Below the pieces are notes generated by a model, which saw only the letters and a program-made list of their open reading frames with translations, was not told the origin of the DNA and ran no database searches. A DNA stretch of 64,000 bases from Thermoplasmatota archaeon (GTDB lineage: Archaea > Thermoplasmatota > E2 > DHVEG-1). Below, piece after piece: positions 15,117-16,902 of this stretch (position 1 is the stretch's first letter; the number at the start of each line of letters is the position of its first letter). The stretch is taken from assembly GCA_025457885.1 (NCBI GenBank), contig JALOTN010000006.1, forward strand, positions 5,635 to 69,634, in the 5' to 3' direction. Both the position numbers and the translations under genes were made by a program.

Positions 15117-15141
15117 TTTTTTTTTTTTTTTTTTTTTTTTT
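15117..15141 (+). terminator. 25-nt poly(T) tract between convergent genes
   Basis: Counted directly: T x25. It starts 4 nt after the stop of the plus-strand gene and runs into the stop codon of the minus-strand gene. Confidence 0.5.
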
Positions 15142-16006
15142 ACCGTACCCAAAACATCGATCGCATAAGCATCTGAGCCTGCAATGGGAGATCTACTGGT
15201 TTTTTGCCTTCGATCATATCAAGGGTCGCCTGGGTGTAGGTATCAACGATCTGTTGGAAGAACCAGCGGCCATAATCACTATCAGCCCGTGCTGGGCTTC
15301 CGACATACCCCTCGGTTATTCCGATTTCTTTGAAGGTTTTACCTAAGACTCGGGGTGAATACAGATCCCGGTAGATGCTCTGGAGGTCTTTATAGGACGG
15401 GTCCACAAGGTAGGGATATTGATAGTTCATCAGGGAGGTTTCGCGGAAACAGGCATGGACTTCTTTTTTGGTATCAAAACCGACCTGTGGCTCTCGTTTC
15501 TCCACTTCTTTGTTGTAGAAATACGGTCCCCAGGGTTCGATGATTTTTATTGGTTTGTTCTTCATTGCTTTACTCATCGCACTGTAGATGGCTTTGAGAT
15601 GTCCAAGGTCCATGTGAAACGTACATATCACATAATATTTGAAACCGAATTTCGAAAGAGAACTGCAGATGTCAGTGATGATCATCTTGAGTGCTTTTAC
15701 TTGAACCGAGACTGTACCGGGGAAATCAGAGGCCATTTTTGTATATCCCAGGGGGATCGCTGGATAGAGGACACATGTCAGCTCAGGTTTCTTCTTCTTG
15801 ATTGTCCGGATTGTTTCCTTTGCGGTGTCACGTGCGGTCAAGAGATCAGTGCCGACGGGAAGATGAGGTCCATGTTCTTCTAAGGGACTTATCGGGATGA
15901 AGATGATGGTTTTCTCCCGGTCGAGTGCATCAAACTGCTTCCAGGAAAGCTCCTCGAGCTGTATGATTTTAAACTCGGTTTTGTTGTTGTTCTTCGCTGA
16001 TTTTAT
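15140..16006 (-). CDS. Creatininase-family amidohydrolase (ArfB/creatinine amidohydrolase-like), apparent non-canonical ATA start
   Basis: The ORF track gives 15140..15841 from a TTG. The same frame stays open upstream to 16015 and encodes KIIQLEELSWKQFDALDREKTIIFIPISPLEEHGPHLPVGTDLL, the family's metal-binding N-terminus. That stretch has no ATG/GTG/TTG. An ATA at 16006-16004 overlaps the map stop codon. Confidence 0.6.
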   Translation of the reverse strand: MKSAKNNNKTEFKIIQLEELSWKQFDALDREKTIIFIPISPLEEHGPHLPVGTDLLTARDTAKETIRTIKKKKPELTCVLYPAIPLGYTKMASDFPGTVSVQVKALKMIITDICSSLSKFGFKYYVICTFHMDLGHLKAIYSAMSKAMKNKPIKIIEPWGPYFYNKEVEKREPQVGFDTKKEVHACFRETSLMNYQYPYLVDPSYKDLQSIYRDLYSPRVLGKTFKEIGITEGYVGSPARADSDYGRWFFQQIVDTYTQATLDMIEGKKPVDLPLQAQMLMRSMFWVR

Positions 16007-16902
16007 GTTATCACCTCACATCCATCTTCTCGTACGATGACGGTGTGTTCTTTCTGAGTGACCATCCCACCTTTTGCTTCAACAAGTTGCGGGTATTGTT
16101 TCACCACACCAAGGATCATGAGTTTTTTCATTGTCAGGTCGTCTTTTGGGAACAAGGTATGGTACCATCGTTGTGCAAACGGTAATGATCCAAAATTGTT
16201 CCGTATCTTCTCACAGACGAGTTTTGTCTTGTTATCTCGGATGAATTTTGCTTTCAAGGTATCTTTACAGAGGTAAATATTGCTGCCTTGGCTGGAGGTC
16301 ACATGTCCTGCCCCGTTTGTGGCAAATGGTTCTATGGCGATTACATCACCATCATGTAACGTACTTTTCCCACCAAGTGCACCGACATTAGGGATGGAGA
16401 CTCCTGAATGAAGCTCATAGCGTTTTAACCCATGACCCATGAGGTTCTCAATGGGTTTGAAGCCATAGGAGGTTATCGTGGACTCGATAGTCTTTCCCGC
16501 CTCAGAAAGAGGCAGCTGGGTGGTGAAGACATTGATTACTTTTGTTAAGGCTTCTTCTGATGCACGGATGAGGTCTGCATACTGGTGTGTCCCCAGTTCA
16601 ATGGTCACCGCGGTATCAGCGATATACCCATCCATATGGGCTCCGACATCGAGTTTCACCACATCCCCCTTTTGGAACATCCGGGGGTCATCATGGGTAG
16701 GACTATAATGGGCAGCTAAGGAGTTGAGAGCAATGTTGACGGGGAATGCCAATCCAGCATCATTTTTGAGGATACGATCTTCAACACATGATGCCACCTC
16801 GAGTAATCGTACCCCTGGTTTAAGGAGGGAGACCCCATAGTCACGGGCTTCTGCGGCGATCCTCCCTGCTTGTTTGTATTTTTCGTAAGTTGCATTATCC
16901 AT
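16003..16902 (-). CDS. map: Methionine aminopeptidase, type 2 (archaeal)
   Basis: DVGAHMDGYIADTAVT, HGLKRYELHSG and AIEPFATNG motifs. Length 299 aa. Confidence 0.92.
   Translation of the reverse strand: MDNATYEKYKQAGRIAAEARDYGVSLLKPGVRLLEVASCVEDRILKNDAGLAFPVNIALNSLAAHYSPTHDDPRMFQKGDVVKLDVGAHMDGYIADTAVTIELGTHQYADLIRASEEALTKVINVFTTQLPLSEAGKTIESTITSYGFKPIENLMGHGLKRYELHSGVSIPNVGALGGKSTLHDGDVIAIEPFATNGAGHVTSSQGSNIYLCKDTLKAKFIRDNKTKLVCEKIRNNFGSLPFAQRWYHTLFPKDDLTMKKLMILGVVKQYPQLVEAKGGMVTQKEHTVIVREDGCEVIT

Follow-up and report, generated by a model that had tools for sequence, protein, structure and literature searches.

Comparative evidence for a candidate AUA start codon in the map stop-codon overlap of a Thermoplasmatota creatininase-family gene

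In Escherichia coli, AUA start codons yield 0.1 to 3% of the output of AUG (10.1101/063800), and in Staphylococcus aureus the conserved AUA or AUU starts of infC, ccpN, cvfC1, and citZ, each with an extended Shine-Dalgarno (SD) sequence, yield 10 to 30% (PMC13009471); the infC start is AUU in E. coli and AUA in S. aureus (PMC13009471). Termination-reinitiation coupling at ATGA and TGATG overlaps is known from both archaea and bacteria (Huber et al. 2019, PMC6728339; PMC10666635; review PMC12548453), and none of these three publications mentions AUA or any noncanonical restart codon. Archaeal start selection is thought to be limited to AUG, GUG, and UUG, with proofreading by aIF1. The aEF1A mRNA of Pyrococcus abyssi carries a strong SD in the arrangement GGAGGUGAU-UUAA-AUG (PMC6237735), programmed -1 frameshifting has been described for fucA1 of Sulfolobus solfataricus (review PMC8211752), and in Haloferax ribosome profiling ~30% of putative initiation sites were near-cognate and were set aside (PMC7261190). 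Our literature searches for a conserved AUA start in archaea, or for ATAA overlaps, returned nothing relevant, and AUA is not mentioned in any of the reviews on archaeal initiation or translational coupling that we consulted. Here we describe a creatininase-family gene that overlaps the stop codon of map, which encodes a type II methionine aminopeptidase (MetAP), in a 64,000-nucleotide stretch of a Thermoplasmatota archaeon genome (assembly GCA_025457885.1, contig JALOTN010000006.1, positions 5,635 to 69,634), hereafter the window.

The map-creatininase junction

Comparison of orthologous junctions suggests that the creatininase-family gene is intact and that its translation probably initiates at an AUA codon (16006-16004), directed by the SD sequence GAGGUGAU and/or coupled to termination of map. 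We infer that AUA would act as the initiating codon and be decoded by initiator Met-tRNA; the product would then be a 288-residue protein rather than the shorter one that open reading frame (ORF) callers begin at a downstream TTG. The features of the locus, all on the minus strand, are as follows.

15140-16006, minus strand: creatininase-family coding sequence (CDS) at its proposed full length, 288 codons from AUA 16006-16004 plus the stop codon TAA 15142-15140, based on PF02633 and the orthologs
16004-16006, minus strand: ATA (AUA), the proposed initiation codon, overlapping the map stop as ATAA
16003-16005, minus strand: TAA stop codon of map
16010-16017, minus strand: extended SD-like octamer GAGGTGAT, within map codons GAG-GTG-ATA and 3 nucleotides (nt) 5′ of the ATA
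16016-16021, minus strand: ATG-TGA as read in the creatininase frame, which this TGA closes 5′ of the ATA
15965-16003, minus strand: 13-codon N-terminal tail, KSAKNNNKTEFKI, which separates the ATA from the fold
15842-15964, minus strand: first part of the conserved fold (IQLEELSWKQ...PLEEHGPHLPVGTDL), which precedes every canonical start and includes E-x-H-x8-D at 15845-15880
15839-15841, minus strand: TTG, the first canonical start, chosen by ORF callers; 233-aa product
16003-16902, minus strand: map, type II methionine aminopeptidase (TIGR00501), the upstream overlap partner

At the junction, the minus strand reads ...GAT GGA TGT GAG GTG ATA ACA TAA in the map frame and ...TGG ATG TGA GGT GAT AAC ATA AAA TCA GCG... 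in the creatininase frame, which is open from TGA 16018-16016 through to TAA 15142-15140. A sequence-only reading of the window had described this start-less minus-strand frame, the TTG at 15841, and the ATAA overlap with the map stop, and every one of its sequence statements holds, including the ATGA overlaps that it listed at 1286-1289 and 10704-10707. ATG, GTG, and TTG are all absent from the 58 codons after the TGA, and TTG 15841-15839 comes first. With the codon usage of the window, a run of 54 to 58 codons without a canonical start has a chance of ~5 to 6%; the start-less stretch by itself is unremarkable, and it is the comparative data that carry its significance. To the earlier description we add the extended SD GAGGTGAT, the upstream ATG-TGA, and the clade-wide spread of the arrangement. 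The upstream partner matches TIGR00501 at 314 bits (cutoff, 222.65).

The start-less segment encodes part of the conserved fold. The extended frame matches Pfam PF02633 (Creatininase) at 151.4 bits (cutoff, 31.3) over profile positions 1 to 236 of 238, with the alignment beginning at residue 21, versus 95 bits and a match only from profile position 42 for the TTG product. This drop from 151 to 95 bits on truncation bears out the earlier proposal that a creatininase-type N terminus with its metal-ligand motif lies upstream of the TTG. The E-x-H-x8-D metal motif is at 15880-15845, where LEEHGPHLPVGTD aligns with LEQHGHHMCMNVD of Pseudomonas putida creatininase; further along, TFHMD aligns with NGHYE and FRETSLM with VFETSLM in 3a6e/1j2t. 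The binuclear metal ligands of the P. putida enzyme (1J2T/1V7Z) are Glu34, His36, Asp45, His120, and Glu183, and we take the aligned motifs to contain the corresponding ligand residues. Solved creatininases align only from residue 15, at about IQLEEL, which corresponds to the start of the structural domain, and a product starting at the TTG would lose ~40 fold residues and three of the five metal ligands; alignment to the Protein Data Bank (PDB) sequences settles the N-terminal question. Scores lie far under the equivalog cutoffs for both creatinine amidohydrolase (TIGR04448, 77.6 bits against 235) and the mycofactocin peptidase MftE (TIGR03964, 60.2 bits against 172), and the protein is a creatininase family member for which the name creatininase is not warranted as a function.

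Conservation and constraint at the start position

A protein search found 1,339 relatives. We retrieved 89 related loci, 65 of them metagenome contigs and the other 24 from GTDB species representatives, and aligned the junction codon by codon. All 24 GTDB representatives are Thermoplasmatota metagenome-assembled genomes (MAGs), e.g., Thermoplasmatales archaeon SM1-50, UBA346, and UBA33. The best matches are mostly exactly 288 aa long, with MKSAKNN as their first residues, encoded from the codon that corresponds to the ATA. Among 68 unique orthologous CDS, the start position is ATA in 34 and ATG, GTG, or TTG in 32; beyond those 66 are one locus with ATC (L053) and one more ATA case (L088). The earlier reading had called for this comparison of ortholog junctions, and its outcome is that canonical-start orthologs begin at exactly the ATA-equivalent codon, in an NTGA overlap, and not at the position of TTG 15841. 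Start codon and map stop codon are distributed as follows.

Start position ATG, map stop TGA: 28 unique CDS
Start position TTG, map stop TGA: 2 unique CDS
Start position GTG, map stop TGA: 2 unique CDS
Start position ATA, map stop TAA: 27 unique CDS
Start position ATA, map stop TAG: 7 unique CDS

The stop/start overlap takes the form ATAA, ATAG, or NTGA in 66 of 66 unique sequences examined, with L053 as the exception, and map and the creatininase-family gene are adjacent in every locus with upstream sequence. The proposal that ATAA arose from ATGA by a G-to-A change fits this distribution, as sister lineages carry ATGA with a TGA stop and ATA lineages carry TAA or TAG. In a neighbor-joining tree, the AUA/AUC state occupies five class-pure subtrees of 23, 9, 2, 1, and 1 sequences, of which the first is the window's own clade and the second includes one ATC sequence. 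On the basis of these five subtrees, the AUA state has arisen or been kept repeatedly, in ~5 separate Thermoplasmatota clades; it persists among sequences whose identity falls to ~70% for protein and 78% for DNA.

In many ATA lineages, LEEHGPH is not preceded by any canonical start. In others, the first canonical codon lies at -41, -27, -22, or -7 codons from LEEHGPH, and database proteins are therefore scattered at 274, 269, 254, 247, and 234 aa. Because gene callers reject ATA, this misannotation is systematic: at least ~20 of the 120 best database clusters are 14 to 54 residues short, among them P0001, P0023, P0039, P0041, P0042, P0049, P0063, P0064, P0067, P0072, P0090, P0095, and P0096, and the 247-aa and 234-aa calls strip the metal-binding motif partly or wholly.

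At the junction, both the AUA and its SD are constrained. The A that opens the ATA doubles as the third base of the last map codon, ACA (Thr), a fourfold-degenerate site, and it is invariant in 34 of 34 unique ATA sequences (in the 26 whose map gene is complete, the map codon was verified as ACA). In the same sequences, invariant fourfold-degenerate columns number 1 of 48 in map and 1 of 35 in the creatininase-family gene (2 of 83), and 0 of 10 among Thr columns. Against the complement of the 16S rRNA 3′ end, with the anti-SD assumed to be the one general to archaea, the octamer GAGGTGAT matches over 8 nt. Among the SD matches of the window it is the longest, those upstream of the 47 called starts reaching at most 7 nt, and matches of at least 8 nt occur at ~0.1% of random positions. 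The octamer stands 3 nt upstream in 35 of 36 AUA/AUC sequences, the remaining one having GAGGTGAC, while canonical-start lineages show nine variants at this site; the large ATG clade has GAGGTAAT, encoding the same map residues, EVIT. The weaker SD form that results from a change of GAGGUGAU to GAGGUAAU is likewise synonymous in map. An extended SD at functional spacing is thus kept together with the noncanonical codon, and a near-cognate codon is conserved at the start position of the orthologs with no canonical alternative before the essential residues.

The SD core GUGAU (~16013-16009) can also pair with the conserved AUCAU of the K-I-I codons (~15968-15964), ~45 nt downstream. The two segments stay complementary in 26 of 26 sequences but do not covary, since other constraints act on each of them; the pairing might mask the SD weakly.

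Selection on the start-less segment indicates that it is translated. Among the 34 ATA sequences, the ratio of nonsynonymous to synonymous substitution rates (dN/dS) is 0.067 from the codon after ATA to the TTG position, against 0.054 for the remainder of the gene. Over the beginning of the fold it is 0.036 in those 10 ATA lineages that go at least 37 codons without a canonical start. Stop codons are absent from the segment in all ATA lineages. In the 13-codon tail, parsimony changes in the window's clade number 9, 10, and 39 at codon positions 1, 2, and 3 (rest of the gene, same clade: 193, 110, and 934), and tail indels in this clade are in frame only. Because no other gene overlaps the tail, the third-position bias is a coding signature, and therefore translation must begin at or before the codon after the ATA. 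Between the TGA and the tail there are only GGT, GAT, AAC, and ATA, of which ATA is the sole near-cognate. By this comparison, the region from the codon after AUA onward is translated and under purifying selection.

Proposed mechanism and competing explanations

In the model that we favor, an ancestral ATGA overlap would have become ATAA or ATAG as the map stop switched from TGA to TAA or TAG, and the near-cognate AUA would have been retained as the initiation site. Pairing of the 8-nt SD (GAGGUGAU, 3 nt upstream) would place the AUA in the P site, and ribosomes terminating on the overlapping map stop probably also supply it, such that initiation could occur either by reinitiation after map termination or de novo, directed by the SD. 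The downstream region is A rich and has no conserved structure. Output is likely low and tied to translation of map. The earlier suggestion of AUA initiation linked to map is accordingly the one among its explanations that the comparative evidence favors.

Several observations weigh against AUA initiation. Archaeal aIF1 is reported to discriminate against, and destabilize complexes on, non-AUG codons (PMC6237735), and AUA should therefore be inefficient. The organism's anti-SD is assumed, as the window contains no 16S rRNA gene (its RNA genes comprise no rRNA and one tRNA-Ile[GAU]). The invariant A could equally serve recoding at ACA-UAA. Octamer changes per unit branch length are 0.67 in ATA subtrees versus 4.58 in canonical subtrees, a comparison that rests on few events (1 change versus 4 within pure subtrees), so the lower rate in ATA subtrees is suggestive only. 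In a distant ATA clade, the coding signature of the tail is weak (9, 8, and 12 changes at positions 1, 2, and 3). Finally, L053 has ATC at the start position (L053:2501) with the map stop 4 nt downstream (GTAA), and L054 has TTA in place of ATA (TTAA, L054:2495-2504) with ACT as the map Thr codon; in both, GAGGTGA(C/T) is retained and no canonical codon precedes LEEHGPH. By these two loci, AUA as such is not universal or obligatory.

Among the competing explanations, a base-call error at 16004 has nothing in its favor beyond the single base that separates ATAA from ATGA, and it is refuted. Two independent assemblies, L001 (JGI sample 3300037461) and L002 (Logan run SRR12684589), have the identical map protein and identical junction; L001 differs from the window in the length of one homopolymer only, and L002 is identical to it over the 4.1 kb covered. 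In L003, a distinct strain (122 mismatches in 4.7 kb; 97.1% DNA identity), both the TGA and the ATA are unchanged, and the base recurs in dozens of assemblies that are more distantly related. A recent inactivating mutation, in which a G-to-A change removed the start to leave either nothing or a 233-aa protein from TTG 15841, would explain why no canonical start lies upstream of the TTG and why gene callers give 233 aa. The comparative data refute it as a recent event, and a pseudogene or truncated product is very unlikely, since the ATA is common to 34 unique orthologs in ~5 clades, all intact and under strong purifying selection, with dN/dS of 0.05 to 0.07 on both sides of the TTG, no stops, and in-frame indels. 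Moreover, lineages do not share the TTG as a start, their first canonical codon differing in position or being absent, and the TTG product is without three of the five metal ligands. One locus may be an isolated exception: in L038 (PDVH01002273.1, 1200-1300), an out-of-frame tail deletion of ~25 nt puts the creatininase domain in the frame of map, with the map TGA alone separating the two genes and no canonical start; this locus might represent a pseudogene, a misassembly, or a fusion made by read-through. Initiation at the upstream ATG (16021-16019) with read-through or recoding of TGA 16018-16016 draws on relatives that bear CGA there and are annotated as 293-aa MRGDNIK proteins, and we regard it as extremely unlikely. 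TGA ends 9 of the 47 window ORFs as a normal stop, which leads us to reject TGA recoding, and TGA and CGA flip between sister tips (L071, L009) according to synonymous TGT/TGC in the map Cys codon. CGA occurs in only four ATA lineages, the ATG is replaced by TTG or CTG in some others (L031, L066, L050), and the GDN codons vary as N/Y/H with the synonymous Ile codon of map and show no protein-level constraint. We also rejected the ATG-TGA (16021-16016) as a functional start-stop element, given its TTG and CTG replacements and the fact that map GGA-TGT-GAG forces it. T16018, the third base of the map Cys codon TGT, looks like a neutral site; in map TGC lineages the element becomes ATG-CGA, from which callers extend to the 293-aa MRGDNIK form (P0030, P0031, P0046), an N-terminal extension that is probably spurious.

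Two further explanations invoke a downstream start and a fusion. Initiation at another noncanonical codon downstream, e.g., AUC-AUA at codons 14 and 15 (15967-15962), would leave the KSAKNN tail untranslated in ATA lineages. In its favor, the structural domain begins at residue 15, four loci (L006, L069, L030, L032) have ATG at codon 15 with 274-aa proteins called there in databases, the tail is weakly constrained in the distant ATA clade, and L054 has no ATA; but the tail of the window's clade shows third-position bias, indels that stay in frame, and no stop codons, codons 14 and 15 have no SD nearby, and the invariant GAGGTGAT and invariant A would be left unexplained ~45 nt upstream. We consider this start unlikely. 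A MetAP-creatininase fusion by recoding at the end of map would account equally well for the invariant A and the invariant SD. Peptidyl-tRNA-Thr(UGU), with the stop in the A site, could for example re-pair from ACA to AUA (+2), which is formally possible by our reckoning (A-U, U·G, A-U), and the two genes of L038 lie in the same frame with TGA alone between them. An SD upstream of a stop codon can stimulate frameshifting there, as in prfB. Yet re-pairing is impossible in L053 (UCG) and L054 (ACU), +2 shifts are very rare, the ATGA sister lineages clearly produce two separate proteins, and no natural MetAP-creatininase fusion was found among the homologs. A classical -1 frameshift was rejected, as no ATA lineage has an X XXY YYZ heptamer and RNAalifold on 26 sequences found no conserved junction structure (consensus, -0.36 kcal/mol; 0 compensatory pairs); the window sequence alone folds at z = -2.3, with pairs that are not conserved. 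A fusion is thus quite improbable. L053, L054, and L038 leave room for a more radical reading, SD-anchored reinitiation with a relaxed codon requirement or none, in which ribosomes ending map may resume on any SD-placed triplet (AUA; AUC in L053; UUA in L054). Alternatively, peptidyl-tRNA-Thr may hop from ACA to AUA to give the fusion. Taken together, these variants are a long shot; if true, either would be an expression mode not described in archaea.

Genome-wide AUA starts are unsupported in that the creatininase-family gene is the only real gene of the window with a long, conserved, start-less N terminus, and the 12 further ATAA/ATAG overlaps among the retrieved loci are each followed by a canonical start within 1 to 16 codons. 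Reassignment of AUA to Met was rejected because ATA stands opposite the Ile codons ATC and ATT in the alignments of map and of the KII motif.

Gene neighborhood and comparison with known systems

The two genes belong to a conserved, operon-like order on the minus strand, from a Sua5/YrdC-family gene (16895-17491) through map (16003-16902) to the creatininase-family gene (15140-16006), with overlaps of 8 nt (Sua5/map) and 4 nt (map/creatininase). The kept map-creatininase overlap hints at a functional or stoichiometric link of MetAP to the amidohydrolase. At the other end of the gene, a 25-nt homopolymer at 15117-15141 (A on the minus strand, T on the plus strand) starts within the creatininase stop codon and lies 3 nt past the stop of a convergent plus-strand gene (14055-15113). 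Its length is 25 in the window and L002, 23 in L001, and 19 in L003, and relatives at 78% DNA identity lack it; the tract may be hypervariable, sensitive to assembly, or an oligo-T terminator of the plus-strand gene. Elsewhere in the window, a plus-strand stop-to-stop ORF of 225 codons (11957-12634) also lacks any ATG, GTG, or TTG; it lies in another frame inside the large gene at 10704-13238 and is probably a chance open frame.

For annotation, these results mean that Prodigal- or PGAP-type callers misplace the start in many MAGs, sometimes losing the metal-binding site or adding a spurious MRGD extension. For the study of archaeal initiation, the locus offers a natural, evolutionarily replicated test case, with ~5 AUA clades and AUG sister clades at the same site; what distinguishes the two states is a set of map substitutions, synonymous there, that make the SD stronger or weaker. 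It raises the questions of whether an extended SD can override aIF1 fidelity, how far termination-reinitiation tolerates near-cognate codons, and why weak coupled expression would be selected.

Judged from its sequence, the locus would be best filed as an archaeal version of the device that pairs a weak start codon with an extended SD, here embedded in an overlap and built on a canonical termination-reinitiation architecture. It resembles fucA1 of S. solfataricus in having adjacent ORFs in different frames with no canonical start in the downstream one, but it has no slippery heptamer or stimulatory structure, and its ATG orthologs show two separate proteins. Its putative SD arrangement, GAGGUGAU-AAC-AUA, is nearly equal in sequence and spacing to that of P. 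abyssi aEF1A, with AUA in place of AUG as the start codon. As in coupling at ATGA/TGATG overlaps, a co-directional pair has a conserved 4-nt overlap with the SD inside the upstream gene, and sister lineages have the canonical ATGA; in contrast, the predicted restart codon of this putatively coupled pair is AUA (ATAA/ATAG). With the bacterial AUA/AUU starts it shares a near-cognate AUH codon conserved across orthologs, an unusually long SD, and presumably attenuated expression. Unlike those genes, it is archaeal, with aIF1/aIF1A/aIF2 instead of IF3; its candidate AUA sits inside a 4-nt overlap with an upstream stop codon, and its product is a metabolic amidohydrolase-family enzyme rather than an initiation factor or regulator.

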